DNA of 20,000 nt from Piedraia hortae CBS 480.64 (lineage: Eukaryota): NCBI GenBank assembly GCA_010093745.1, contig MU005974.1, forward strand, positions 230,037-250,036, read 5' to 3'. Position numbers and translations under genes: made by a program. The notes beneath the pieces are model-generated. The model made no database searches and was not told the origin of the DNA. It saw only the letters and a program-made list of their open reading frames with translations. Positions 1,611 to 20,000 of this stretch are shown here, in pieces. Every line of letters begins with the position of its first letter. The stretch's first letter is position 1.

Positions 1611-3191
1611 CTACTCGAATTCTATCGTCGCCGGCGGTTTATCCGTTAGATCCACCAGGACTCTAACCACGCCCTCAACTTCGTTGCAGATTCTTCTGAT
1701 GATCTTCTTTAGGAGTTTATAATCCATCTCCACGGCGGTGGCAGTCATGAAGTCATCCGTCTTGACCGCTCTAATCGCAGCAATGTATCCATGGAATCTC
1801 TTGTCCCCCACCACACCCACCGCCTTTCCATCCATCAACGCCAGGACAGCCTGGGAGATGGAATCATACAGTCCCGCAGCCCGCAACTCTTCAATAAAAA
1901 TCGCATCCGCATCCTGCAGGGTCCTGACCTTCTCTTCCGTGACCTCGCCGATGATGCGGATACCCAACCCCGGCCCGGGAAAAGGATGTCTCCAGACCAT
2001 CTCCCTCGGCAGGCCCAGTTCGGTCCCCATCTCCCTAACCTCATCCTTGAACAGCTCCCTTAGGGGCTCAATCAACTTTAGATCCATCTTCTCCGGCAGC
2101 CCTCCCACATTGTGGTGCGTCTTGATCGTCTCACTGGGTCCCTTGAACGAAATGCTCTCAATCACATCCGGATACAACGTCCCCTGCAACAAAAACTCAA
2201 TCTTCCCTTTTCCCCCTGCCCTCTCCGCAATCTCCTTCGCAGTCTCATCAAACACCTCGATAAACAGTCCACCAATAATCTTTCTCTTCCTCTCCGGATC
2301 CGTAACCCCCTTCAACCTCCCAAGAAATCTCTCCCTCGCATCCACAACGGTCAAATCAATCCCCAGCCCCTCCCTCAACGTCCTCTTCACGCTCCGCGCC
2401 TCATCTTTCCTGAGCAACCCATTATCAACAAGCACAGCATGAAACCTCTTCCCAATCGCCTCATGCATCAACCTCGCCGCAACCGAAGAGTCAACTCCCC
2501 CACTCACTGCCCCAATAACCTGCCCCTTCTCCCCCACCGTCTCCCTAATCCTCGCAATCTCCGTCGCAACGAACCTCTTCATCGTCCAATTCTGCTTCGC
2601 CTGGCAAATATTAACCGCGAAATTGCGAAGCAGCCCTACCCCGCACGCCGTATGCGTGACCTCGGGGTGGAATTGGATCCCCCACACCCCCTTATCCGGC
2701 CTCCCTATTGCAGCATACGGCGACGAACTCGTCGTTGCAATAACCTCAAACCCCTCCGGCAACGCCGACAATTTATCTCCATGAGACATCCAGACATCCA
2801 CCTTCTCCCCCAATCCTTCAAAGAGCCCCCCGGCGGTTGTGACCTCTAGCTCCGCGTGCCCGTACTCTTTCTTCGCCCCCGCTACGACGCCCTGGCCGTG
2901 GTGCCATGCTATTTCTTGCAGGCCATAGCAGATCCCCAGGATGGGGATTCCGAAGGTGAATGTTTTGGGGGAGATGTGCGGGGCAGAGGGCGAGTACACG
3001 CTATATGGACCGCCGGAGAGGATTATGCCTTTGGGCGTGAAGGGGAGGGTGGTGGGGTCCACCGTGCAAGGGTAGAGCTCGGAGTAGACCCCTAACTCGC
3101 GCAACCGGCGCGTGATGAGGTGCGTGTATTGAGAGCCGAAGTCGAGGACGAGGAGCGTGTCGAAGAGAGTGTGTGGTGGTGCGGCGGACAT
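1611..3191 (-). CDS. GUA1: GMP synthase (glutamine-hydrolysing), 526 aa from the second in-frame ATG
   Basis: Class I glutamine amidotransferase motifs [31 protein letters not shown]-loop [24 protein letters not shown] and C-terminal KPPATIEFE. Homology begins just after the ATG at 3191 ([21 protein letters not shown]). Confidence 0.97.
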
Positions 3192-3812
3192 GGTGATTTG
3201 GGGTTGGGATTTTGTTTTTTTTTTGTTATTTTTTTTGGTGGGGTGAGGTGACCCCGCCGGAGGGGTTCCGTGGTTTTGTGTGGGATTTGGCTCAGAATGG
3301 GAGGGTTGATGGAATCGTTTTGTGGGATATTCTGCTGAGAGTAATCTACGAACAGTAGGTGCTGCAGATCTCTGTGCTACATACGTGGTCGGACGTACTG
3401 ACAGACGTCGTTGCATTGGTATTGGGGATAAAGTAGAGTCTGCGACTGGCTACTTGCATCCTCAGAAGCAGATTTGCAATGCTCCTTTACGTCTTTGACG
3501 AAAACACAGACGTTCTACAAGGGTTAGCGCGGGATTGTTCCGCGCCGACGCGAACAATTTAATTCTTGGTATCAAACATCGACATCATCTCATCATCGGC
3601 TTGTCACCCGTCAAAGATCTCACATTTCGACGTGTAACTGTAGATGAATGGAGGTGCAGTGCGATTCTCAAGCGATGTTCATGGCTGACGTTGAACGGCA
3701 AGGGCCGCTTCGATGAACTTTAGTGTTGACTTCATTTCATCAGGACTGACCAGAAGCAGGACAAGTGTTGCCCTGTTGAAGAGCTGCGAGGCGGGCTTCC
3801 CTTGCAATATCT

Positions 3813-4010
3813 CATCTCTGTGTGTCTTGAAAGAGGTGATGTAGAAATAAGGTTCAACTGCGGCTTCTCGCCGCTCGACCGCGGAAGATAGAGATGCCTT
3901 AGACATTGCCTCAGTTTCACACCGTACCTTCGTCGATTCCCTGTAGAACGTCAGAAGGTCGTGATAGAGGTAATCTAACGCTGTTGTGCGCGAATTCACT
4001 TCGAAAAGCC
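3813..4010 (-). repeat. Copy 1 of a diverged 198-bp repeat (inverted partner at 17348-17545), inside unidentified 126-aa ORF 3679-4059
   Basis: Ungapped manual alignment gives 175/198 identities; both translate to LFEV.SRTT.LDY.YHD..TFY.ES.KVRC.T...SK.SLSSAVERR.AA.EP.FYITS.KTHRD. Confidence 0.92.
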
Positions 4011-5169
4011 GCATCCCCGGCTGAAAAGCAAATCCCATCCGTGCAAGATCGAAGATCATGCAAGGCCATTAGCATATGGAAGAGATGCTATTAATCTAAG
4101 GCCCATGGTGGACTAGAAGAGGGCCTGACTGTCCGACAGTCTCAATGGCTAACTAAGAGACATGTATGCCACCAATATCGCTCCTCCTGACGCCAGAGAT
4201 GGGGGTGCTGGATGCTGGTTTGAATATTGGAAGTACCCCGATCATTGTATAACAGCAAAATGAATACAGTGCGATTGCATTGTTACAGTTTTGGCAGGAA
4301 TGAGCATGTCAGTTGATGCGAAAATTGTTACATCAAACGAACGTCGAATGCTGAGGATGGTCCCAATCGCCCAAAATTCCAGCTGAGCCGTAGCCATCCA
4401 GCTCAAGATCAATCGCACGCCGAAGGAGTGCCTACTTGACTCAAGACCTCCACAAAGATATCTGGAATGAGTTTACAAATAGTCGATTCATCCCATGATG
4501 GACAACAACAATACAGTCCGAGTTCTGCATTTACATATCGCAGAAACACATGAACTCTCCATGACCACACCAGCTATCGATGCACTCATCAATCTAACTG
4601 GCACACAATGTTCAACGCGGACGGAAGACTACTATGCGGCCTCTGCAACAATCCTTCAAGCCTACCATAATATCTTCAGTGAGATAACCTTGCCCAAGGC
4701 CGTGAGCCAAACAATTCAAGCCCACATAAATCAACATTTTGCTTTTATTACATCAGAAAAACTACATTCCCTCGCTCAAGACATTCTGAGCAATTAGGTT
4801 CCATTACTTCAACAGTTCAGAACACATGATATATAACCCCCCGAACAGCTGCAAGCACAACCCACAACAACAGCCCGAAACAAGCCGTTCCAGACCAGGA
4901 ACTCGTTTACACAGGCACCAGAGCGAGGAAGTACGGAGTTACACAGCAATTCGAAGACCGGTAAAAGCAAAACGTCACCAGCCGGGAGAGACGGACAAAA
5001 GAGCTCCGACCCTCAATGGGCCGGAGCAGGGGACTTGTCACGCCCGACGTTGTGTCCCTTCCCTCTAAGTTCAGTTTCTTTTGGACATGGACCTCGATCG
5101 ATCACGTGTCTCGACACCGATTACAGAACGCATGAGCGATGCCTCCAGACGGTGATGTCCAGCAGGTAA

Positions 5170-5770
5170 ATACCTCGCCATGACTATGCCTGTTACAGCA
5201 CTACCATCCTTCCCGACACTGGATCAAGTTACCACTTCATCAAAGACAAAGCACTGTTCATATCACTGACTGATCGACCAGTTTGGTTTAGTCAGGCAGT
5301 TACAGAAGCAAAATGGTATGGAAAGCAACAGCCGAGATGGGCAAATCTGGAGCAACAATCTCTTCCAATACAATACAGGGGCTTCGAAAGTTGGCAATGG
5401 CGCATCCAGACTGAACGGGGCCATCCAGAAGCCAAAGCCATCGAATTCTTCGTATGTGAGGCCTGCGACGGAGCCGAAATTGTCAAGATTTCCTTACACG
5501 ATTTCTTCCGGCCAGTAGCTTATACCGGCGAATCCATCCACTATCGAACTGAATCGGTCGATGGCAACGAATAGCTAGGACCCGATTGCTACTTCATGCT
5601 TATGGAGTCCGTCTGTGATGGTCACAATGCATGTCTCCCGGTGCTGTGAAGGCAATACACGTTGACGGAGCGAGGGAGCTGGTCAATGGTGTTTCCCTGG
5701 TCGAGTCCTTTTGCAGCGAACGACGATTGGGTTGAGGACTTCAGTGCCGCAACATCATCATCAGAACCTA
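5170..5770 (+). mobile_element. Decayed Ty1/copia LTR-retrotransposon pol remnant (protease, pre-integrase Zn-binding region, integrase core)
   Basis: ATG-less open frame 5170-5574 reads ILPDTGSSYHFIKDKALF (protease D-[ST]-G), WQWR...GHPEAKAI, CEAC and GESIH. After frameshifts it gives VKAIHVDGARELVNG...FCSER (from 5646) and RTSVPQHHHQN (from 5735), resembling integrase xRxDNGxE..FC.E.G and T.PYTPQQNG. Protease directly followed by integrase is the copia order. Confidence 0.75.
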
Positions 5771-6350
5771 TTTCCGATGGGATAGATTAGTCTGATTCTG
5801 ATTCTGTTCCGGACTGGGAGGGTGTTGGGTTTGAGGCAGTATAGGTTCTGAGTAACATGGGGCGCATTGTGACAGGGGCCGGAGAGGAGCGGAACAGGGT
5901 TTGGGAGTGTAAGGCTGGGAGAAAGAAGGACCGACCGGCCGTAAGTTCAGAGCGGTCCCACGCTTTCCCAAGTTGTGTTTTCTCGTACATAGTGCTCGAT
6001 AGACACTTGTCTCGACGCGGGCACACGCATTGGAGCTTCTTTGTATTCTGCTTTGTGGGTTCCCTGGTTTAAACCGGGGAGAGCTGGGAGGGCGATCCTT
6101 TGGTGTGGATCTGAAGGAATGAATGGCTGCCTTGCTGTCGTACTGTGATATAGCGGATCCACCTGATGGATTCGAGGCCATGGCATACTCATTTAGCCTT
6201 TTATGGTGTCCAAATTAGGTCAGAATCAACGAGAGAGTATTGCCCACTAATGAATAATCAATATATCCGTCCCCCAGTCTCCATCTAACTTCATGTCAAG
6301 TATAATGTTGACAAATGCACTAGTGTATGTGGCTTGTGGTCAACATCAGC

Positions 6351-6415
6351 GCCGAGACGTATGGTGTCGCCACGCATCGTCGAGGGCAACCGTCATGCCG
6401 AGACTTATGGTGTCG
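6351..6415 (+). repeat. Short direct duplication (19-bp core, period 46)
   Basis: gccgagacgtatggtgtcg at 6351-6369 and gccgagacttatggtgtcg at 6397-6415 (18/19 identical). Confidence 0.8.
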
Positions 6416-6480
6416 TTGCTCATTGCCTGCTCCTCCTCCTGCTCTTCTTCTTTCACTTCAACATCCCCATTTACTCCTCA

Positions 6481-6712
6481 CGGGAAACTCGCATTACCAA
6501 CAGATACCATCATAAAGTCTGCGTCTCCATCTATTTCGTTTTTCCATGCATGCATGGCCAAGTGCTCTCTCCTATATCATTACAGCTTCGCCCATTCTAT
6601 CGTACTTTCAAAGCATCTTCCATAGCCATATTGTCTTTGAATACCGTCGAATACTCCGATAACATACCCACAGACGGAACCTATCCCTCGAATTCTCACC
6701 AACACCACCTCT
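6481..6712 (+). repeat. 232-bp direct repeat, copy A (partner 10547-10778)
   Basis: Ungapped manual alignment at offset 4066 gives 222/232 identities. Confidence 0.97.
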
Positions 6713-6769
6713 TTTCTTCACGAGGATTAAGAGCTCGAGCACTAAGGAAGAAAGAGCCAAGAGGCAATC

Positions 6770-7334
6770 CTGTTGATGTTAGTCGGGAGCCAGTCCCGAT
6801 AGGCCTAGGGTGACCAGCAACCTCATCTCTAGAGTCTCAGCAAAAAGGTAGCAGCAACAACATTGTCTTTCATGTCACTTCCCGTTCTTATATTCACTAT
6901 ATCCAAGGTGCACTGACCTGGACCCACGCTTCACAGACCTGCTACCTATCTGCGGGTATGTCCACGAGCTACAGGGAGAACTGAAATTTCCAACACGAAA
7001 CCACCAACGAGGATACGAACAATTAAATCTACGATTAGACGACACGTAAGAGAGGACTATGAAAGACATTTGGCGTCTGCGGCACGAAAGCTGGCCCTAG
7101 GAAGTGAGAGGGTGGATTCCACATTTAAATGCCGCAGCTCGATGACGTCTGCACCTGAGTCAAACTCGTGGCGTACCGCTCCATCACCAATCTGACCACG
7201 GTGAACAGTCTTTCCTAGAAGTTCGGGTACCTAATCGCTGGGCAAACATGGCTATCACAATTTCGCAGGCACTCTCAATTCGAACCCTCGTGAAACCTTC
7301 AGCAGCCCCTCTCTACCACACATTGACCAATTAC
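6770..7334 (-). repeat. 565-bp inverted repeat, left arm
   Basis: Reverse complement of 10944-11508; no mismatch found on reading through. The ORF track shows the identical 64-aa ORF at 6875-7069 (-) and 11209-11403 (+). Confidence 0.98.
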
Positions 7335-7399
7335 GATCGCCAAGCCACCCCCCTTGCCATTACAAGGTACCTAACTTAGCTGAGCAAGCCCATTATCTC

Positions 7400-7445
7400 G
7401 AAAGTTAAACTGGGGGTGCGAGACTCGCACCCCAGTTTAACTTTC
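7400..7445. repeat. 46-bp near-perfect palindrome (hairpin/cruciform-capable)
   Basis: gaaagttaaactgggggtgcgag-a-ctcgcaccccagtttaactttc: 22 complementary pairs, one extra G in the left arm, 1-nt centre at 7423. Confidence 0.95.
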
Positions 7446-7726
7446 TCAAGCACAGATAACAGTGACTGCCACCAGACGACACGTTCTGCACACCCCCGAG
7501 CTGCCTAATGCGATGCACAACGGCGCGGTGAGACTGGCAGAAGACTTTGGAGCACATGCTTTTACTGACAGACTGCTTCCGAACTGCTAGCCGAGGGCAT
7601 GGAGGTAATCGTCGCAGTGTCTTCATGGAAGAAGGACACGCTCTCAAATCCCAACGCGCTGTGCAGTCAACCTGGCGTTGTTGCTTCCCTACCCAATTGG
7701 GCCTAGCTTGTGACGTCACACAAACT

Positions 7727-7813
7727 GTAACAATTGACCCGTCCACCAGCAATCCGTAACAATTAACCCATGGCAATCCGTAACATTACCCACCCAGCAA
7801 TCAACAATGTCCC
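7727..7813 (+). repeat. Degenerate minisatellite, about 3.5 units of 23-29 bp
   Basis: gtaacaattgacccgtccaccagcaatcc / gtaacaattaacccatggcaatcc / gtaacattacccacccagcaatc / aacaatgtccc. Confidence 0.75.
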
Positions 7814-8086
7814 TCCCCCCAAAAAAACGTCGGCCCTCAATGCCTCCCAAAAAACGCAACCCCCCTCAAACGAAAATTCCCACCCCTTCACTCCTTCCGC
7901 CTTCCCCAGCTGGATCGAACTGGAATTCGAACCCGCCTTCTTGACCGTGATGAGTTGAAGAGGGAGGAAAGGGAAGAGATGATCAAAGTGAGGAATCGGG
8001 GACACGATTTTGAGGGGTTCGTAAGGACTTGGTTACGTGTCCTGGCGGATAATGGAACGTTGGGGGAGTTGGTTAGGTGGCGTTAG
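7784..8086 (+). pseudogene. Gene fragment resembling the C-terminal tail of a UCH37/UCH-L5-like ubiquitin C-terminal hydrolase (peptidase C12)
   Basis: 100-codon open frame without a usable start, ending DELKREEREEMIKVRNRGHDFEGFVRTWLRVLADNGTLGELVRWR*. This resembles the RRH[ND]Y.PF...L..LA..G.L..L tail of that family. No catalytic domain is visible upstream. Confidence 0.5.
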
Positions 8087-8714
8087 GCGGGGCAGAGTGG
8101 ATGGACGCTGCGACATAGCGGGTGGTGGGGCGGAATGGAAGGGTGCTGAGAAAACAAGGCAGAGATTCTCATGAGTGTGTTGCTCATTGCGTCTCGAAGG
8201 CCACGAATAAACGGTGTAAAATGGTACGGTGAGCAATGGGTTGGTCATTTGGAGTGTAAAAACGTTATTTCCTACACAGAACACCTCAGTACTATCACCC
8301 CAGTACTGTCAGTGTTTTGAGCAAATATCAGGCGCAGTTTAGATAATAACGTGATCAAGGTTACGGAGCTACTTGAAAGGCAAGCCTAGACCCAAAGCCA
8401 TCGGGCTGAGCTGAATGCCGCGCCGCAATTGTGCTTCCTGCCAACCCCTCCAGTTGGGAATAACTGTAGCCGCGCCCCATTGATCCCGGTCCATAAAGGC
8501 GGGGTAGTGTGGAGCAAGTTCGGGCCGTTTGCTGTCTGAGCTGCTACGATGCATCGACTTTATTAATATCCGCCAATTGGAATGGCCGCGCACTTTACCC
8601 GCGCGCGATCGGCGCGTAGTTCAACCTCATCTGATCCAAACGTGCTGAAGTGCGGCGCCTGAGCGAAACCTCGTGACCTATCATTAAACGCCCAAATCTT
8701 AATAGGCACATCGC

Positions 8715-10235
8715 ATGGATGAATCCGACCAGACAGCTGTGATCGGCGGTACCAAACGGAAGCGCGATGGGGACGCATTATTAGAGTCGGACAGACCCCC
8801 GAAACGCTTTGCTACAAGTCTTTCGATTTGTTCTTTTGATATAAGCGGTCCGGATGACCCCGTTGCTCATTGGGTTTCAGCATCCAACTGGCCATCCAGC
8901 ATGGGCGAACCTTCCAACCCCCGAAAGCGGACTGCAGAGTCTATAACCACAGTCCCGATCAACGAATACAAAAAGGTTATTGTTCAGCTTCCAACGAACG
9001 TCCAAAATTTGATGAAGCGGGAAAACTTGGAAAAGTACAGCAAGTATGGGAACGGTGTCTATCTGCCCGTTCCGGATACAGGGCTTGATTCTGCTAAAGC
9101 GTGGGACGAGAGGAAAGAAATTTGCGAAGATTCAAACGAATCCTACCTTGTCCAATATTTGACCAAACTCATCCTGCCATGCCCCGCTGACATACTGACC
9201 AATGACGACCCTGGGAGGACGGAAATTCAGAATCTTCCTGATGTCGACTGGGAATGGAAACTGTCGGATGGAAAACCACCGAGGCCGAACATCACTCTCG
9301 GTTTAATGCCGCAAGTTTTCACCACAACGCAGCTGAGAAGACTTGAAAATTACAATCAAGTAAGACCAGCAGCGTTCGCGAGAGGGCTGTTTTTCCCATT
9401 CTTCGTGTGTGAGGTGAAGGCCCACGACGGCAAATGGGATGAAGGACTAAAACAGGAGTTTGGTGCTGCGGCTACCTATGTTGACGCAATCGTTCAGTTG
9501 TGCGAGGCTGTCAAACCTGATGAGGTTAACCAGCTGCAGGGCCAGATCCTTGGCTTTGGCATGTTGCACAACCATAAGAAAATTGAAATCTATGGACACT
9601 TCTTTCTCAAGGACGATGACGAGAAGGAGATCAACTACTATCGCCACAAGTTTTTCGACATCCAAGTCAGCGAAAACTTTGAAGTGAATCCTGACTATGG
9701 CGTCCCGGGTGGGAGACATCCAGATCGCAGGATGAGTAGTAAATCTGCTGCAATTATTCAGGAGCTGTACACCAAATTTTATGCCTTGCACAAGAAAAGA
9801 ATCATGGACTATGTGAACATGCTGCCTGACGCAACAGATCTACAAGTGGGCATCACCCAGGAGCATCTTGAGGCGACATCTAGCAAGAGACAAAGGACTA
9901 CCGCCAACGCTACCTCCACCGCCCAGGCTAACAATAAAGTGATTGCGGCTAAGGATGAAGTGATTGAAAAGTTGGAGCAGCAAATTCAGCAAGTGCGTAT
10001 GGGTAAGGATGCAGAAATTGAAAGGAACGATCAGGCCAATGCCAAAGTAATTGCGGCTAAGGATGAAGTGATTGCGGCTAAAGTCGCAGAGAACGAGAGG
10101 TTGCTGCAACGGTTGCAGCAGATGAGGGAAGACGCTCAGGGAGACAAGCGCGCTTCTTTGCAACAAATCGAGTTCTTCCAACGTCAATGTGAGAGTCTAC
10201 AAGAGGAGTTGCGCAAGAATCAAAGGCCGAACTAG
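8715..10235 (+). CDS. Fungal PD-(D/E)XK/REase-fold-like protein (resembles the DUF7924-type family) with basic NLS-like patches and a C-terminal coiled coil, 506 aa
   Basis: Intact 1521-bp ORF. Ordered motifs DPVAHW..W P, SNESYL...LILP, PRPNITLG, FT..QL..L, FPFFVCEVK, ILGFG..H, IEIYGHF, YYRH, H.KRI..LP match my recollection of this family. TKRKR/PPKR and PRKR are basic patches, and the last ~110 aa are Q/E/K-rich. Confidence 0.8.
   Translation: MDESDQTAVIGGTKRKRDGDALLESDRPPKRFATSLSICSFDISGPDDPVAHWVSASNWPSSMGEPSNPRKRTAESITTVPINEYKKVIVQLPTNVQNLMKRENLEKYSKYGNGVYLPVPDTGLDSAKAWDERKEICEDSNESYLVQYLTKLILPCPADILTNDDPGRTEIQNLPDVDWEWKLSDGKPPRPNITLGLMPQVFTTTQLRRLENYNQVRPAAFARGLFFPFFVCEVKAHDGKWDEGLKQEFGAAATYVDAIVQLCEAVKPDEVNQLQGQILGFGMLHNHKKIEIYGHFFLKDDDEKEINYYRHKFFDIQVSENFEVNPDYGVPGGRHPDRRMSSKSAAIIQELYTKFYALHKKRIMDYVNMLPDATDLQVGITQEHLEATSSKRQRTTANATSTAQANNKVIAAKDEVIEKLEQQIQQVRMGKDAEIERNDQANAKVIAAKDEVIAAKVAENERLLQRLQQMREDAQGDKRASLQQIEFFQRQCESLQEELRKNQRPN
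9936..10081 (+). repeat. Intragenic coding repeat (KVIAAKDEVI x2 plus a partial third VIAAK)
   Basis: aaagtgattgcggctaaggatgaagtgattg at 9936-9966 and aaagtaattgcggctaaggatgaagtgattg at 10044-10074 (30/31 identical), the latter continuing cggctaa. Confidence 0.9.
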
Positions 10236-10546
10236 CCGCCGGATGTCAATTTAGAATGATTACAGAACGACCAGCGGGAGCACATGGGGAATTTGTATTT
10301 AGAAAGACTCAATGTGTGGTGCACACAGTTGATATTGATCACTTTAGTTGTAGTAGCTGTTGTCATCAACCATCCCCTTCCTTTCCTCCTCGACGACTAT
10401 CCTATTGACCATCAATCGCTCCCCTTGGTCGTCGTGATCTTGGACTATCATGGACCCTGTTTACTGACACCGACTGATTTTTTCCCCATCTAAGCATCCC
10501 AGACCTTGCCATAAGTTAACAGAGGTGCAGTGAGACTTGGGTCTCG

Positions 10547-10778
10547 CGGGAAACTCGCATTACCAACAGATATCATCATAAAGTCTGCGTCTCCCTCTAT
10601 TTCGTTTTTCCACGCATGCTTGGCCAAGTGCTCTCTCCTATATCATTACAGCTTCGCCCATTCTATCGTACTTGCAAAGCCTCTTCCATAGCCATATTGT
10701 CTTTCAATACCGTCGAATACTCTGATAACATACCCACAGACGGAACCTATCCCACGAACTCTCACCAACACCACCTCT
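10547..10778 (+). repeat. 232-bp direct repeat, copy B (partner 6481-6712)
   Basis: 222/232 identities to copy A. Confidence 0.97.
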
Positions 10779-10943
10779 AGTTAAAGGAAACGATGTTCTA
10801 ATAAGCAGCGGCACCTCACAGGTGTGTCAGTATACACGCGTATCTAGGGCTACTTGAAAATTTCTGAGTACTCGAACCCTGGTCAGGGATGTGGGTCATC
10901 ACCTGCGGATCGCTCCGTGGCGAACTGCACAACATTGGCTATT

Positions 10944-11508
10944 GTAATTGGTCAATGTGTGGTAGAGAGGGGCTGCTGAAGGTTTCACGAGGGTTCGAAT
11001 TGAGAGTGCCTGCGAAATTGTGATAGCCATGTTTGCCCAGCGATTAGGTACCCGAACTTCTAGGAAAGACTGTTCACCGTGGTCAGATTGGTGATGGAGC
11101 GGTACGCCACGAGTTTGACTCAGGTGCAGACGTCATCGAGCTGCGGCATTTAAATGTGGAATCCACCCTCTCACTTCCTAGGGCCAGCTTTCGTGCCGCA
11201 GACGCCAAATGTCTTTCATAGTCCTCTCTTACGTGTCGTCTAATCGTAGATTTAATTGTTCGTATCCTCGTTGGTGGTTTCGTGTTGGAAATTTCAGTTC
11301 TCCCTGTAGCTCGTGGACATACCCGCAGATAGGTAGCAGGTCTGTGAAGCGTGGGTCCAGGTCAGTGCACCTTGGATATAGTGAATATAAGAACGGGAAG
11401 TGACATGAAAGACAATGTTGTTGCTGCTACCTTTTTGCTGAGACTCTAGAGATGAGGTTGCTGGTCACCCTAGGCCTATCGGGACTGGCTCCCGACTAAC
11501 ATCAACAG
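10944..11508 (+). repeat. 565-bp inverted repeat, right arm; has solo-LTR-like ends if read as 10943-11507
   Basis: Reverse complement of 6770-7334. Read as 10943-11507 it starts TGT, ends ACA and is flanked by gctat / gctgt. Confidence 0.98.
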
Positions 11509-11758
11509 CTGTCAGTGTCGGAGTGACAGGTGAGTCATATTATTGTTTTAGACTTTTCCAAAAACACCCAAATTCAGAGGTAAAGCTTGGCGTACATTGC
11601 CACCGAAATTCTTGCTAGGAGCTGGGATGATTCCCAAATTTTCGCAAATTTTGAATTTTCGTGCGGTGAGTGATCACGGCCTGCCCCGCAAAGGGTCGCC
11701 CCACGAATCCGAACCCTAACATCACAACTGCTGCCAGCGAGCTCAGCGACAGCATCCC

Positions 11759-12703
11759 ATGTCCAAATTCACCCTCGCGCTTGTGGCGGGCGCGTCGGCA
11801 GCCATCGGGGCAGCTACAACAGCAGTAATCTACAGCTTCAGCGGCGATGAGCGGCGCTCAACGTCCATCTCCAGCGCGTCCCCGTCGCCTATCCCATCAC
11901 AACGGCAACAGGCGCCAGTTGACCCTGCCGGACTCTTCCAGTATGGCTTCCCCGGTCCAGTGGCAGACCTTCACAGCACACCAGCGCTGATATCGTGCTT
12001 CGATCGCGCACGGCGCAACCCTCACTGGGTAGCAGAACACATTACTCCAGCCTCGCTGCTCAGACGCGAAGGCGACCGCAGACTTTCCAATTTCGTTGAA
12101 GATCTTACCATTCCCGAGCACTTTCGCGCTAAGTTAAAGGACTACTTCCGCTCTGGCTACGACCGCGGCCATCAGGTGCCTGCAGCAGATGCCAAATGGA
12201 GCCAAGAGGCTATGGATAGTACCTTTGCCCTCAGCAACATGTGTCCGCAGGTGGGTGATGGCTTCAACCGCGACTACTGGGCCCATTTGGAGGATTTTTG
12301 TCGAAGGCTGACGAAGCGGTATCCGTCCGTCCGGATCGTTACGGGGCCGCTGTATCTCCCCAAAAGGGACGCTGTAGATGGCAAATGGAAGGTGACGTAC
12401 GAGGTTGTTGGCCATCCACCAAATGTCGCCGTGCCTACGCATTTCTACAAGGTCATATTCGCGGAAGATGGACATATCGGTGGCAATGTAAGCCTTGCGG
12501 CTTTTGTGCTGCCAAACGCGGTCATCAAAAATGATACGCCCTTGTCTCAGTTTGAGGTTCCCGTAGAAGCAGTGGAGAGAGCGAGTGGACTCGACTTTGC
12601 GAGATTGTTGCCTGAGAACCGAAAACGGAAGCTCTGCAAAGAAATGGATTGCTCGATTCTTGTAAAAGAGTATGACGACGCGAGGAAGAAACTGACGCAG
12701 TAA
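11759..12703 (+). CDS. NUC1: Mitochondrial DNA/RNA non-specific endonuclease (endonuclease G), 314 aa
   Basis: SGYDRGHQVPAAD (His-Me finger DRGH active site), TFALSNMCPQVGDGFNRDYWAHLE, VAVPTHFYKVI and YGFPGP; hydrophobic N-terminal targeting/anchor-like segment. Confidence 0.97.
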   Translation: MSKFTLALVAGASAAIGAATTAVIYSFSGDERRSTSISSASPSPIPSQRQQAPVDPAGLFQYGFPGPVADLHSTPALISCFDRARRNPHWVAEHITPASLLRREGDRRLSNFVEDLTIPEHFRAKLKDYFRSGYDRGHQVPAADAKWSQEAMDSTFALSNMCPQVGDGFNRDYWAHLEDFCRRLTKRYPSVRIVTGPLYLPKRDAVDGKWKVTYEVVGHPPNVAVPTHFYKVIFAEDGHIGGNVSLAAFVLPNAVIKNDTPLSQFEVPVEAVERASGLDFARLLPENRKRKLCKEMDCSILVKEYDDARKKLTQ

Positions 12704-15367
12704 TATGTATCATAGTGAATTCGATGTGGACCGCCGGAGCTGCCCCAGTTACTTTTGTCTCCGCCCGAGTTTTGAAGTTGTATGATAAAATTACTGCACT
12801 GTGGCCGTTGCTGGTGAATGTACGTTTGGAGGCCTTCACAAGCACTGAATCTTGTATCACAAATGTACCATGTCAATCACTCTTATCAGCTTACGCCCTT
12901 GAATCAATCACTGGTGTAACAGCAATCGAGGGTTTGTCACTGATTCAACAAGAGTGCCACTCGTCTCGGCGCGACCCTAGCCAGCTATAAAATCTCCCCA
13001 TTGCCCCGTCTGCTTTTCCATTAATCCAGTTCAGCTCACTTCAGAATGAGCAATCCATTACAAGATAATGGAACCTTTCACATTTCATCATTGAAAGAAT
13101 AGCCAGGACTGCCGGCAGCTTCAGCTATATTCTCCAATCATAGTCGGAGAGTTACATCGTCCAGTAACATAGCCTTTTTTTCAACAAGGTATTAGGATAC
13201 CTCCATGAAGGCCTACGAAAGATAAAGTGTATCGAGCCAAGATGCGCTTGAGGGATTTATGGGCCACTTCCCGACTTGGAACAAGTCACAACACCCTTTC
13301 AATTGATCAATAACATAGCAAACCTGGCAAAAAACGCTCGAGTATTGGCGTCTATCATACTCATAACGCACCCAACATCAGCTGATTTCAGACCCGAAAC
13401 ATGGGGCGTCTTCACTCTAGTCGGCTTTCTCCGATATCTACCTAATGCTGTACATCGAATGTGCGAAACGCCTCCCTTTCATGCCTGAAACCAATCATGA
13501 TACACTATCCTGGCAAGGGTGAGGACAAATCTTCTTCTCCAGAGAACTTCTCGGCCTTTGAACTCTTCAAACCCATGCCTGCAGACGACATACTATGCAA
13601 GATCATGCTATTTTCTTTCCAGACTAGTGGACGCGATAAGCCCGAACTCCACCCCCTCAAAAGCTTCTTCCCAGGACGATTGCAACAGAGGCACCCATAT
13701 CCGACGACTGGCTTAAGCCACAGCCCTGTCGAGCTCACCCAGAAATTTTCCACAGAATTTTACATAATCCCTCAAAGCACGAAGATGCAAAAGCCGAACA
13801 TATAGCATCTGAAGATGCAATTACACTGGACCATGCACCACGTCCTCCGGCGCCTGTGCACTAACATCGCAATCTTCCGATGTTAACCACAATACACCCC
13901 TCCCAAACGAGCGACATTTTCACGAAATGAAGAATACCAGCGGATTTTCTCCTAATGCACAGACGAGAATTAAGCTTTAGGGCCACATGCCTACCGCCTT
14001 ACATTTTTGATTCTAGCCCACCGTACAAGAGGTCAAGCGCTACGATATCATCAAGTGCGAATATACCATATACTTTCTGCTTGTGCCAGACGACCGTGCA
14101 GAGACAAATATTCACCCACTTCACCGGAAACCCTACTCGTGGGGTCCAGTGTGATAGGCCCGCAGGCCCAAAGAGCCGTGGGGAGAAACTGGGACTAATA
14201 CCCAAGCCCCAGACAGATCTCCGCTGCGGCCGCCTCCGCGTACGTTTGGACCTCTCTGAAGAGTGAAAGCAAGATGGGCAGAAGGTTAAGGGACCTTGAA
14301 TGGAATGCGGAGCCATTTCCACAACCACATTGTTTTCTGGCCACCATTGCGTCGAGTCAATGGGTATCAGAGCGAGATTAATGAAGCATTTTTTGACTTT
14401 GGTACACGCCATCATGCCAAAGACGGCTGCGTTGCGCCTCGGCCTTCTCACCTAGGACGATGAGAGGCCGGTGCCGTCTCTCCAAGTCACGGCGCGTCTT
14501 CTTTGGCTTTCTGTCTGTGGCTTCAACGGGAGGCCAAAGGGGAGACAAGAAGGAGTCATCGCCGTTCACCCTATGTGTTGTGGAGACAGCATCACGTTAT
14601 AAAGAAGGGGAGGGATCAGACACTTTCACACATAAAGATGCGAATCTGTGCACATTCCCATTTTACCTTGGTGTGCGCCAAACTGTGGTATATTTTTTAT
14701 ATGTGGCAAAATGTCAGCCTGCTGGTTTTTTGGATACACGTACCTGCACCTTGGACGAGAAAAGACAGGGACAGGTGTATGGATGAAATGCGAAGGAGCT
14801 GCAACGCTGCTCATCCAGATATGTTTCGAGGGATTCACAGCTCAGGAGCGAAAGCCTCACTCTGAGATCCGCAATCTCGAACAGCCCCTAATCACCCCCC
14901 CACCCATAAAGACGGCATGTCACCATTTCCACTTTCAGAAATTGGCACAATACGACGGAAACAGCACAGTACTCGAAAGCAGCGCTACTCTTCGCTCCAA
15001 CTGCCTGTCTCGTCAGTTCCCTTGACCAATTTTCAGGCGTGCCTGGTCCATCTCCATCGAGATACTTGGGGAGTATACCTCCGTCGTTACAATGACCTAA
15101 ACAAGCAGTTTATTGGCGTGTTATAGCATATTCGCTGTATGGAACGTCCCTCGACTACGGGGAAAAGTTGATGTACACCGAAGAGCTGATAGCTGCATCG
15201 ACAAGCGGCACCCACCAAAGGTGACGTGTGAACCGACGATGGATGCAGTAATATCAATCCCTATCTACATCGATCTAGAAACTGAAAACGACTTGACCAA
15301 GGACTCCGAAAAATCAGTCTTGGCAGATGTGTCTGCATTAAGGACATGATAAGGAGAATCGCCAACA

Positions 15368-15540
15368 CTGACTGGACCGTCGAGGTTCAGGTACATCCAC
15401 CTTAGCCGTTTTCAAGATTTAGAGAGTTCTCACTAGCCCAGAAGATACATGTGGTTTACTCTACGCCATGCCATGAGCGGATCCAGACTGTACCCAGCCC
15501 TTCCAGAGGTATACCCCACTACCTTCGGCTCTAAACCCTG
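15368..15540 (+). repeat. Diverged direct repeat, copy 1 (partner 16584-16759); probable decayed paralogous gene
   Basis: ctgactggaccgtcgaggttcaggt matches 16584-16608 at 24/25, followed by colinear shared words tctcact, catgagcg, cagaggtatacc and cactac.ttcg. Confidence 0.75.
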
Positions 15541-16583
15541 GACCACGTGCGTGCCATAAGCCAAGTACGGAGCCTCCTTTCACCCACAACCAACATCACA
15601 TTCGTCAGGGATTAGGGAAATATAGTGCCTGCAAGCCCATGGACACATTTTGAATCGGGGGATACTGACTAAAAGGAAGGAGTGCAAATCACAGATCGAT
15701 CCCCCCTTCCCATCTGTTGGTCTGTCTGTGCCTTGAAAGGGGAAGGAAATGGTTGGCTTCTTCGAGTGGGGTGAAGTACAACAAATCTACCGCATTCACG
15801 TATTTTTTAGGGCATGCACCGCATGTGGGCCAAGCATACAGCCTGAGTCATTCACGAAAAAAAAAAGCAGAATGGGTATGGCCATGCCAGCTACAAGAAA
15901 ATTGGACTTGTTGCACATCCACATCTCATGTTGGAGAGTTTGCGCAATGCGACAGGTGTGGAATAACATTACCCCGGTGTTGGAGGAACTGCCATTCCCA
16001 CCCTACTTGCTGGATCGCTGTCCCTACCTGCAAAGACATAGGGGCGCTTGGTCCGATCTTTCAAGCCGATTATGAACAAATACCTGGGTGGAAGATTCTG
16101 GGCTCCCTGACATTGTGCAGGCCCTCTTCCTGTCACCTTTGACGCTGCGGCTGTGCGGGATTGGGTGCAGCAGAAGCAAAAAATACTGCGACGAGCGTTT
16201 CCAGTGCGATGTGTGTCTGGGTGCATTACGCGTAAAGCAACCACCTGGGAACCCTGTCACCGTCAAAAGGGAATTAAGCTTCTTTAAGGACCTAAGGAAA
16301 CAGCTGATTGGGCAATTTACAGCACATTCGCTGTAGGATTGCTCCTCGACTACGATCCACAAGCGTAAGATGTGTGAGTACACTGAAGCGCTGATGCTTG
16401 TGTCGATAAATTACTACCTCATTTAAGCTGTCGGTGAGCAAAGATGGTTGCAATAATGTTAACATCCTTTTCACATCCATTCTGGAGGCTAACAAAGGGA
16501 GAATGACCAGAACAAAAGTCCCTGCTGTTGCGATCCACCGGAGACATGATGGAAAAGAAACCACAAACGATGCAGCTGTGACC

Positions 16584-16759
16584 CTGACTGGACTGTCGAG
16601 GTTCAGGTTCCTCTGCTTTCATCTAGGCTTGTTTTATATACCCAGGAATGTCTCACTGAAACCAAAGAACATTGAGACTCCTTCATCCACCATATCATGA
16701 GCGAAGAGGATTTACCCCGGTTCATCAGAGGTATACCACTACTTTCGCTTTAACGCCTG
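16584..16759 (+). repeat. Diverged direct repeat, copy 2 (partner 15368-15540)
   Basis: Same colinear anchors as copy 1, with small indels. Confidence 0.75.
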
Positions 16760-17347
16760 CGGTCGGCATGGATCTCACAACTAATAAACGGAACGCCACC
16801 TTCGCATTTGAGGAAAATCAAAGATGTCCCGAGTACTCATGCTCGAAATTTCCAACCGCATTCCACAATGTACCTATATTGTGTTGAATGCTGTTTATTT
16901 GAGTGTGCTGCCGTCCATAACTTGTGGAGAACGTCTACCACCCATCTAACTCTTCCTCCAAATGTTCAATACAACTCAAGAGGCTCGGGTATAACCTCAC
17001 GACCGAACCCGCCACGGCATTCCTTTGGCAGGGAGACTTGGAAGCAATGTGCTATTACGACATATATCGAATTATCAGCGGATCGACGTTACAGTCCGTG
17101 TTTTGGCAGAGAGACAAGGGCGGGGAGTGGAGGGGGAGAGGTATTTTATGAACCTACTTACCCGTGTACGTTCACAAGTGAGGGGGTTGTTGATCCCTAA
17201 CAGATGACTCCAAGTACTATCTTCATCCATCAGAAACAGAGAGGCTTGAGGCAGGAGGAATTTGGAAGCATACTGGGATCAGAAAAAGGACTTTGCTGAG
17301 TGTCCGCATGATGGCTCAGTCCTTTGGGTTGAAGATGGCGTGTGTGG

Positions 17348-17545
17348 GGCTTTTCGAAGTGAAATCACGCACAACAGTGTTAGACTACATCTATCACGAC
17401 TTTCCGACGTTCTACAAGGAATCAAAGAAGGTACGGTGTGATACTGGGGTAATATCTAAGGTATCTCTATCTTCTGCGGTCGAGCGACGAGGAGCCGCTC
17501 TTGAACCTTAGTTCTACATTACCTCTTCCAAGACACACAGAGATG
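17348..17545 (+). pseudogene. Copy 2 of the 198-bp repeat; disrupted paralogue of the 3679-4059 ORF
   Basis: 175/198 identities to the reverse complement of 3813-4010; a Tyr TAT codon of copy 1 is TAG here (17509-17511). Confidence 0.8.
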
Positions 17546-19692
17546 CTGGACCCGCGTTTTGGCTTCAGGGATACCGGCGACATGCTCTGGACCGGGATCG
17601 TAGAGGTGGCCCCGAAAGGAGCATGCCGCAAGAGCTATCTCAGCAGGCATTCCGGCAGAAGAGCAATTTGATATCTATGCTGCTCAGGACGAAATGTCGG
17701 CCCTCATCTCGGGCGTGCAGTCGGAGAAAGGAAGCTCCTTCCATTACCGGCATGAGGCTTTTCCCCCGGTGCCAGAGAAACGGAAGCGTCGACGTGGTGG
17801 AAGACGGTGGGGCAACATAAATTTCCACGATGACCGCCAGCGACGTCCTCGCAGTACAATCGATAAGCATGTCCGCGGAGAGAGTTTCTTTCGCTAGGGC
17901 AGGTATAGCTTCGCCTTTCGTCAGGCTTATTGGTAATCGCTGGAACCGAAGAGATGGGGCGTTGTATCGTTGGTGGGCATGGAGGAAAAGGGCTAGGATG
18001 TCGGCTGTGCTAGACAAGCTGGGGAGGAAAATGGTGAAAGCGAACTGTCAGAACGGCCGTAGAGCCTGAGCCCTGGTGGTCAGGAACTAAGGATTGTTGT
18101 TGAGAAGTATCAGTGCCATACCTCGGCCTGATAACAAAGACGATACAAAGAAAAACCCTGTATAGCAAGATACTCCAAGAGCATGATAAAGAGGACAGTG
18201 GCGCAATGGAGTAACATTTGAACCTGTTTGAACACAGAAGCTACTTGTATACAAGCTTGCTGTTGAACATCAGGAAAGATAATTTTGTAAAAACTCAATC
18301 TTCAGAACGATTACGCTACGCAAAAACTATCTTCCAACTAAAGCATGGGCACCGATGGAATTCAAGAGATATATCCTCCATCGAATTATGGCCCATTACG
18401 CCAACGACCCTCACCAACTTATACGCAGACTTCAATCTGGATTCAACAGAGAGATGTGCAACGAAGGACAGATGAAGACTTTGAGATGAACTATTGTCTA
18501 CCGACTACCAAGTCATGTCAGGGCTCATCGACAGATTGCTCTTTCAACCAGGATTAGGAGGAGAAATTAAACAGGGAGTTGAAAGCGAAAGTTGCTGCAT
18601 CTCAGCTCGGGTTGCTCCTGCAAAAATATTCTTCCAGCTTTCCATCCCTGCTGTGGAACCGAACCAGACCTGACGTAGAACAGTCCAGCGACTTCTCATA
18701 CGTCTGATCTCATCTAACGGTGCTGCAAGAGCCTCCTTACTTGGTGGGCCCCCTAATATCCTCACTTGAAAAGGAAGAGGAAGAGAAATTGGGAAAGGAA
18801 CCGCCACTCTCGCCATTGCCATGCAATAATCCGCACGATCAAGCGTCTGCAATTCGTATAACGATAACGTGATTGGGAATCTAAACTATATCCGAAAACG
18901 TGTCGAACACAATAATCCGGTGTCACGAGAGGAGAGAACGTACCATGGTGGAGTTTTCCAATACCATAGGCCCTTCTCCCTTATATAAAAGTGTAGAGAC
19001 GCGAAAAAAGGGAGAGGGAAGTGAAATTGTGTCAGTCAATCTTCCATCTCTTGAATGGCTTCGAATTTTGACGGTGGGGATACTGATCGGTTGATAACGG
19101 GAATCGATCCAGCTGGTTCATATGGATGCCAAAACCAACCCCGAGGGTGGATATACTGAAGCGAGATCATCAACTTACTCAGTTTAGGGTTCCGGGATTA
19201 GGGTATCATTATGGATGCGTCGAATTGTAAGAGGCTCTTGGACGGCTGGAAGGACGCCGTCACGAGGCACCACATTTCCATCCGAGGCAAATCCGAGGTA
19301 ACTTCCAATCTTACAAACAGAAGGAGACCACTGTAGTAAAACATGCCCCGAGGTCGGAATGGTAGAATTTGAAGATGCGCTAGTTGCTTCCGTCTGCGCT
19401 GATATTTATAATTCCACTGTAGACGCGCTGGAAATTTCAGACTCTGAAGTGGAGAAATACTGCCTGTATGTATCGTTTCTATCCCACCGTCTAAGTGGAG
19501 AACGACTTCTATTTGATCTTGTTGGTCTCTCCATTCATAAGAGGGTGAGAGATTATCGTGTCAGACTATGATGAAAGAAGGATGGAGAGTGTGGCTTGGA
19601 CACCGGGTTAAGGCAAAGGAGGGAGTTATATTCCCCCAAAATCCATCCGTCAAAAGTTTAGACTGGCGTAGAGAAAATCTTCCCGTATCCCA

Positions 19693-20000
19693 TCACAAAA
19701 CAAACCTAAACCCCGTCCCGTAATCCTCCTTTCCCCTCCCCCCCACCCCTTCATCCCTCCCCTCCAACCTCCCATTCTCCCACCTCAACAACGCCCTCAA
19801 TCCCACCGCCAGCATGGCGGTCAAAAACAAAAACCCCGCGCAGATCGCATGCCCCTTCACGTACCCCGGCCCCTCCAGGTTCGGATACAACCTCTTCCCG
19901 AGCAGCGGACCACACTGCCCAACCAAATTCAACACCACGAACCCCACCCCCCTCCTAACATCCCCACCCTGGTTATTCGCCGTCCACGGTAGAATGTTCG
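19693..20000 (-). CDS. MFS transporter, allantoate permease/anion:cation symporter type; 3' end only
   Basis: Frame open to the window edge: NILPWTANNQGGDVRRGVGFVVLNLVGQCGPLLG..YP...P.Y.KGHAIC, a last TM helix, LRWEN.R and terminal FRFVL, as typical of Dal5/Tna1-like permeases. Confidence 0.9.
   Translation of the reverse strand, partial: NILPWTANNQGGDVRRGVGFVVLNLVGQCGPLLGKRLYPNLEGPGYVKGHAICAGFLFLTAMLAVGLRALLRWENGRLEGRDEGVGGRGKEDYGTGFRFVL

Follow-up and report, generated by a model that had tools for sequence, protein, structure and literature searches.

Identical inverted repeats around a DUF7924 gene of Piedraia hortae: probable heads of a multicopy patchwork cassette

A 20,000-nucleotide stretch of the Piedraia hortae CBS 480.64 assembly (contig MU005974.1; hereafter the window, with position 1 as its first letter) holds a gene of the DUF7924 family enclosed by two long, identical inverted repeats, which the sequence-only reading had taken for an invertible switch or a new type of element with long terminal inverted repeats (TIRs). 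In our analysis, these repeats are probably the two heads of a multicopy patchwork cassette, one of which was flipped, truncated and later homogenised, making the arrangement an ordinary product of duplication and homogenisation. The locus, as most likely read, shows how repeats resembling solo long terminal repeats (LTRs), ectopic recombination and local gene conversion can together give the appearance of a young long-TIR element, which calls for care in scans that equate identical arms with element ends.

Inverted arms and the cassette

The geometry first described for the arms was reproduced: two exact inverted copies of 565 bp each (6770-7334 and 10944-11508) flank a core of 3609 bp, while the longest exact inverted match in 50 base-shuffled windows was 18 bp. 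Homology between the arms reaches 9 bp further inward with 2 mismatches, for a total of 574 bp. The other repeats of the window have diverged, as had been stated (95% for a 236-bp direct pair, 88% for a 201-bp inverted pair), no outer target duplication of k = 2-12 surrounds the arms, and neither a transposase nor a recombinase was found, the Pfam search being empty in 18 read-through frames over 3450-8714, 10236-11758 and 12704-20000. The sequence-only reading had missed that the arm is a composite of an outer dispersed repeat of 129 bp (repeat A) and about 445 bp of other DNA, and that arm and core are both multicopy. The cassette would measure about 4 kb and consist of repeat A, the ~445 bp of other DNA, a hairpin, a hydrolase relic, the DUF7924 gene and a tail. 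In the window, ~6771-10778 is a full copy, which could start further to the left; the right arm would be what remains of the head of another, oppositely oriented copy, cut off at a second dispersed repeat (repeat B). The features are as follows.

6770..7334, plus strand: left arm, exact over 565 bp, interpreted as the multicopy cassette's head
7335..7343, plus strand: inner 9 bp of the arm homology, in which the left copy has 2 letters of its own; putative edge of the homogenised tract
10935..11508, minus strand: right arm, read as an inverted, truncated extra cassette head, exact over 10944-11508
6771..6899, plus strand: repeat A, left copy, 129 bp, solo-LTR-like, dispersed, starting TGTTG, flanks AATCC/TATCC
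11379..11507, minus strand: repeat A, right copy, flanks ACAGC/TATCC with a 1/5 match, read as a recombinant copy
10794..10934, unstranded: repeat B, 141 bp, TGTT...AACA, high-copy, solo-LTR-like, flanks AACGA/TTGGC
7400..7445, unstranded: hairpin with a 22-bp stem containing one bulge and with differences in other copies at 7410, 7416 and 7423
7813..8086, plus strand: ubiquitin C-terminal hydrolase relic, internally deleted and frameshifted, ending in a stop
8715..10235, plus strand: DUF7924 gene, 506 aa, with a PD-(D/E)XK-fold domain at about residues 86-375 and a C-terminal coiled coil
10236..10542, plus strand: cassette tail, multicopy, with a poly(A) loose end after 10355 in run X1
6477..6712, unstranded: D1-left, direct repeat of 236 bp, 95% like 10543-10778, multicopy
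10543..10778, unstranded: D1-right, direct repeat of 236 bp; several X2 contigs carry other letters
11759..12703, plus strand: NUC1/EndoG-like host gene (PF01223), the single-copy control, its ATG 251 bp from the right arm

Copy number and junctions were taken from two public runs, both available as contig sets, X2 (DNA) and X1 (taken as RNA by guess only), of which 202 and 341 records were aligned over 7335-13334, that is, the core, the right arm and NUC1. The single-copy reference in X2 is a NUC1 contig (11479-13334) without other letters at a depth of 13.1. Core contigs lie at depths of 47-64, those at 60, 64 and 61.1 corresponding to 4.6-4.9 times single copy, and the arm sites at 11114 and 11289 reach 57.2 and 71.8 (4.4 and 5.5 times). 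Arm and core are thus each present in about 4-6 copies, a rough figure from contig depth only. The joint from the inner end of the arm to the left end of the core occurs with left-arm letters (7335-10944) at a depth of 18.3, which is the window's own junction, and with the inner letters of the right arm (7344-10935) at a depth of 35.6, the latter also in X1. As the contigs at the deeper joint carry other letters over 7410-7530, we read them as other genomic copies and not as a flipped isomer; a crossover within the 565 bp alters no joint, so the contig data are blind to the orientation of the core. Further gene copies with the same arms had been suggested as a check, and here one arm does accompany the gene elsewhere, while a pair of arms was not shown. 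An empty-site joint was absent among the joints listed for the aligned stretch, which excludes the left flank. Cover was low at 8135-8334 in X2 and at 8335-8534 in X1.

Identity of the arms is best judged against the divergence of the other copies. Compared with five majority X2 contigs, the window copy has 32/1545 differing letters (2.1%), and at such a divergence a run of 565 letters without a difference would have a probability of 7e-6 if there had been no exchange; the identity of the arms therefore points to past exchange between them. Within the inner 9 bp, the right arm has the letters common in other copies and the left arm its 2 private ones. The right arm is accordingly not a plain duplicate of the left, and the pattern is that of a conversion tract that stopped short of the end of the homology. 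Positions 7339-7348, where the homology of the right arm stops, read GCCAA GCCAC, a near tandem 5-mer that could reflect chance or microhomology at a break.

Both dispersed repeats have copies with fixed ends and many different flanks, as defined by the loose ends of X1 and X2 contigs. Repeat A forms the outer end of both arms, with its ends set by loose ends at 11379 and 11507 (11 and 8 X2 contigs), and repeat B, whose ends at 10794 and 10934 are set by 22 and 23 X2 contigs and by 8 and 6 X1 contigs, finishes precisely where the homology of the right arm starts. Repeat B has the termini TGTT...AACA; repeat A begins with TGTTG and finishes with CACTA. Solo LTRs are expected to have matching flanks after insertion in place and mismatched flanks after recombination. 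The flanks of the left repeat A agree at 4/5 letters (chance 0.016), those of the right repeat A and of repeat B at 1/5 each. These properties make A and B candidate solo LTRs. The match at the left repeat A, as for an in-place insertion, suggests that the cassette continues leftward past the arm. Two single-depth contigs contain the joints 10934-11378 and 10934-11449, in which B abuts A or sits within it elsewhere, so that the two repeats nest or cluster.

On this basis, the arrangement could have arisen as follows. Ectopic recombination through A and B would have brought in the extra head or trimmed it, leaving B and the right A with flanks that do not match. The two inverted heads, lying close together, would then have undergone gene conversion, which left 565 of the 574 bp identical but did not reach the inner 9 bp beside the break in homology. 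If an exchange of this kind ended in a crossover, the core would be inverted passively, with no need for a dedicated enzyme and to no evident effect. The DUF7924 protein of the window would be a passenger, probably with little or no ability to cut DNA. Occasional flipping of the core is possible, as recombination can take place between two identical 565-bp inverted arms that lie 3.6 kb apart. As far as seen, such a flip would neither cut a gene nor move one into silent chromatin: 3354 bp separate the left arm from the ATG of GUA1, and the first 565 upstream arm bases of NUC1 are the same after a flip.

Several points weigh against this explanation. Summed contig depth is no copy number, since contigs drop minority variants, and the same alignments hold 285 differences, 13 indels, 99 loose ends and 546 pieces beyond those considered here. 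X2 may be the assembly's own source, and the figure of one arm per copy is an average from depth, in data that end before the flanks of the other copies and the end of the cassette. Among the pieces listed, none bridges the 10934/10935 junction. Repeat A ends in CACTA instead of the usual CA, and a full-length retrotransposon was seen for neither A nor B, which leaves the solo-LTR label inferential. The inner 9 bp would also fit a fresh local duplication followed by a clustered mutation of two bases. Pack-type and Helitron elements, too, typically capture gene fragments. Finally, mismatched flanks can also result from mis-assembly (PMC4806543).

Two known systems resemble the arms as we read them. 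In the flip/flop region of Saccharomyces chromosome XIV, inverted repeats are likewise kept near-identical by homogenisation and the core can re-invert without a dedicated enzyme; its arms are, however, 4 kb long, hold sporulation genes and show conservation throughout the genus, and the region is documented in both orientations (PMC9731477), whereas the Piedraia arms are 565 bp of non-coding multicopy DNA. The wtf genes of Schizosaccharomyces pombe are multicopy and fast-evolving, with conserved flanks, solo LTRs as recombination arms and patchwork copies; unlike DUF7924, they are proven poison-antidote drivers, and we claim no kinship in sequence (PMC11497594). By analogy, the arms would work most like the homogenised repeats of the Saccharomyces flip/flop region and the LTR-associated spread of wtf genes.

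The DUF7924 gene and the rest of the core

The open reading frame of the core encodes a DUF7924 protein (PF25545; Pfam 111.6 bits against a cut-off of 27, E 5.6e-32). The sequence-only reading had called it an intact gene for a protein like a restriction endonuclease (REase); the open frame of 506 aa and the fold bear this out, but the first Asp of the catalytic motif is replaced by Asn192. Position 192 (codon at 9288) is Asp in 136/151 homologues and Asn in 4, and both close full-domain paralogues, P0001 and P0002, have Asp. The window copy keeps E233 (146/151 homologues) and K235 (131/151). The Asn192 codon is covered by an X2 contig (9194-9421) without other letters and at a single-copy depth of 14.8. 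As Asn stands in place of a conserved motif Asp, whose catalytic role is deduced from the motif and the position in the strand, the window copy is probably impaired as a nuclease.

Because coiled coils swamped the structure matches (VIA) of the full-length model, the domain was folded again alone, giving a model with a predicted local distance difference test score (pLDDT) of 92.7 that matches REase folds: BpuSI (Z 9.1, root-mean-square deviation (rmsd) 3.6, 156 aligned residues), DrdV (Z 8.0, rmsd 3.3, 136 aligned) and HsdR (Z 7.8, rmsd 3.9, 128 aligned). Mitoribosomal chains tie with the restriction endonucleases at the top of this list. Foldseek returned nothing at E <= 0.001 for either the full-length or the domain model, and a PDB sequence search with the family profile nothing below E 0.5. 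PDDEXK_12 (PF20516) is the nearest of the other language-model clusters, at 0.91. The C-terminus was modelled as one long helix.

DUF7924 occurs in at least 10 copies in P. hortae, the window copy included. The two closest matches among 8000 scored candidates are P. hortae proteins on other contigs (78% and 91% identity), a 104-aa piece lies on a further contig, and the close paralogous proteins number four in total, of which three are encoded on other contigs. Six of the 8 more distant matches examined are also P. hortae proteins, encoded on several contigs. Similarity between the copies is patchy and gives a patchwork alignment. A quick tree of 66 rows, with P0004 omitted, places 9 rows labelled Piedraia on one side of a branch with a Shimodaira-Hasegawa-like approximate likelihood ratio test (SH-aLRT) value of 99; the organism was checked for only 2 of the other 57 rows, and long branches may attract. 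The window gene is a member of DUF7924, the family near PDDEXK_12; it belongs to a divergent, lineage-specifically expanded Piedraia subfamily on long branches and has N for the conserved D.

Run X1 gives a hint of transcription for the 3' end of the window copy. Contigs without other letters cover 9427-9757 and 9979-10355, the latter with the poly(A) loose end, and at 9825, 9836 and 9900 letters of other copies make up only 214.8 of a depth of 3393.8. At 8625-8878, letters of other copies stand alone among the pieces listed. Level, strand and start of transcription lie outside these contig data.

The family is widespread in fungi, with 405 DUF7924 representatives at E <= 0.001, and ranks among the most variable families of the Neurospora pangenome. 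That study is the only one to name it in the literature we searched, and no paper tying PDDEXK_12 to fungi was found, subscription journals and supplements being outside the search in both cases. A metagenome scan yielded 10 confirmed DUF7924-related loci from 200 pattern matches, two of which (L002 and L003) are identical, and viral contigs yielded 93 pattern matches and 0 confirmed relatives. Long identical inverted arms were found at none of the 6 loci scanned, a weak test with 5 distinct loci and 7 kb on both sides only at L002 and L009. L002 has a 22-nt inverted pair (82%, 3.7 kb apart) that may be due to chance. L009 has a degenerate inverted pair (260-402 and 10947-11092), which makes it a candidate gene-carrying TIR unit. 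The Pfam domains in 19 neighbouring frames at the related loci were DUF7025 (2), AAA, APH kinase, GPIID winged helix, C2H2, RNase HII and a DUF7924 fragment; at a few related loci, DUF7924 is thus near DUF7025/AAA, kinase and winged-helix genes. The lasting lead from this locus is the family itself, a widespread group of fungal proteins with an REase fold that has expanded in the small genome of P. hortae, and the natural Asp and Asn paralogues within one genome make its activity easy to test.

The strong palindrome and the host-like gene fragment reported for the core are both real. The hairpin is well outside chance (z -6.09, 0/200 shuffles as good), with a one-base bulge in its stem. The fragment derives from the host ubiquitin C-terminal hydrolase P0156 and is a relic in which codons ~1-38, frameshifted, are joined to codons 381-425 (42/45 identical); the intact gene (425 aa) is located on a different contig. 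P0156 and another DUF7924 gene, P0008, are on contigs that are both 172,704 bp long and have accession numbers 15 apart, probably one and the same contig. Pfam matches in 25 open frames were weak (UCH_C E 0.039), and Rfam gave nothing at gathering thresholds.

Alternative explanations

It is unlikely, in our estimate, that the locus is a non-autonomous gene-capturing element of the Pack-type or Helitron-like kind, a unit of ~4 kb moved by an external transposase or Rep-helicase that captured both the hydrolase relic and DUF7924, with the right arm as a broken second insertion. Such an element would account for a unit of 4-6 copies with a captured, internally deleted host gene and a strong hairpin, features in common with Pack-type elements and fungal Helitrons, and L009, in another fungus, has a 76% inverted pair of ~150 bp around 10.5 kb with a kinase, a DUF7924 fragment and DUF7025. 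Helitrons have their hairpin ~12 nt before the 3' CTRR end (PMC4289320); the Piedraia hairpin, in contrast, is internal, with no CTRR within 29 nt on the plus strand and a single one 20 nt off on the minus strand. Neither 5'-TC and 3'-CTRR ends nor a TIR pair or target-site duplication (TSD) were identified for the cassette, and its visible junctions fall at the solo-LTR-like repeats.

An assembly artefact, in which a diverged copy or a lone repeat A was merged with left-arm sequence by a short-read assembler to give the right arm, appears quite unlikely. No listed contig covers an entire arm, and those that cross the outer right junction reach no further than repeat A: an X1 contig at 11476-11664 (32 letters inside) and an X2 contig from 11479 (29 letters). 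Both points, with the 10934/10935 junction missing from the pieces listed, would suit such a merger. Mismatched solo-LTR flanks include both recombinant and mis-assembled cases, and some mismatched TSDs in maize were assembly errors (PMC4806543). Against this, other copies of the arm have indels at 11114 and 11289, and without the indel-bearing contigs the window-type arm letters still stand at 1.7 and 2.7 times single-copy depth, which is consistent with two real identical arms. The letters of other copies in the inner 9 bp of the right arm also speak against a plain copy of the left.

More speculatively, and with a very low probability, DUF7924 proteins could be a hitherto unrecognised family of selfish fungal nucleases whose own breaks drive ectopic repair via solo LTRs, thereby spreading the cassette, capturing host pieces and converting or flipping the heads. 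The Asn192 copy would then be a non-cutting partner that tempers active paralogues via the coiled coil, with a poison-antidote pair of paralogues and both core orientations to be expected. Letters of the Asn192 copy dominate the RNA-like run X1 at three 3' sites. The Spok spore killers of Podospora are also multicopy fungal genes that combine a coiled coil with a PD-(D/E)XK nuclease domain; in Spok the coiled coil is N-terminal, and the protein also has a cysteine cluster and a kinase domain needed for resistance (PMC6660238), whereas the coiled coil of DUF7924 is C-terminal and no kinase was matched by Pfam.

A regulated flip-flop like the mating-type (MAT) locus of Sclerotinia sclerotiorum, with regular inversion of the core, for example at each meiosis, and arms kept identical for it, is highly unlikely. 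The geometry is similar, with a core of 3.6 kb between identical inverted repeats (those of Sclerotinia are 250 bp; PMC3574095), and the exact identity of the arms does imply recent exchange. In Sclerotinia, however, the arms are partial MAT1-1-1 sequence, the flip truncates the gene and the orientations segregate 1:1 (same source), while the Piedraia core holds no MAT gene, no gene of any kind lies in or across an arm, GUA1 begins 3354 bp away, the upstream 565 bp of NUC1 would be unchanged, and no sign of regulation was seen. The arms also consist of a dispersed repeat and multicopy DNA, and the window has a GC content of 46-55%, no AT-rich block and no signal of repeat-induced point mutation by dinucleotide indices.

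Least probable of all, and barely credible on present data, is the autonomous long-TIR element proposed at the outset, cut or mobilised by its REase-fold protein. The lineage-specific expansion of DUF7924 (at least 10 copies, SH-aLRT 99), the REase fold and the Asp kept in P0001 and P0002 would suit it. The arm:core depth of ~1:1 instead of 2:1, the continuation of the arm into the core elsewhere and the free-standing outer 129 bp with many flanks speak against it, as do the absent outer TSD, the damaged nuclease motif of the window copy (D192N) and the lack of long identical arms at relatives (5 distinct loci, of which only 2 have 7 kb on both sides). A non-autonomous TIR copy needs no DDE transposase of its own. 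An inverted repeat of centromere type was set aside because the core has an open gene and lacks an AT-rich block.

Surroundings of the cassette

The cassette is flanked by host genes for an NADH dehydrogenase subunit, the GMP synthase GUA1 (1611-3416, minus strand) and the NUC1-like nuclease. The two D1 copies bracket the full cassette, one beyond the left arm and one inside the core, which would fit a circle that integrated at a D1 copy. Substitutions between them favour no reading frame clearly, and no homologues were found among 213 candidates, with a query in a frame other than the most protein-like one. An older inverted pair (3813-4013 and 17345-17545; 201 bp, 88%, 13.3 kb apart) brackets the cassette together with NUC1 and resembles decayed coding sequence, with no Pfam match.

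As the X1 contig at 11476-11664 reaches 32 letters into repeat A, the leader or promoter of NUC1 may begin inside the right arm. The X1 contig over NUC1 skips 65 nt (11666-11730) in the 5' leader, where X2 matches the window. Shifted by one base, the skipped segment starts with GTGAGT, contains CTAAC and has TG instead of AG at its end, although a CAG follows 7 nt downstream; it is possibly a non-canonical GT-TG intron, seen in one X1 contig at a depth of 308. The GMP synthase frame (1611-3416) carries ~76 extra N-terminal residues ahead of its second Met (MSAAPP...), which could be a targeting extension or reflect an in-frame ATG upstream.

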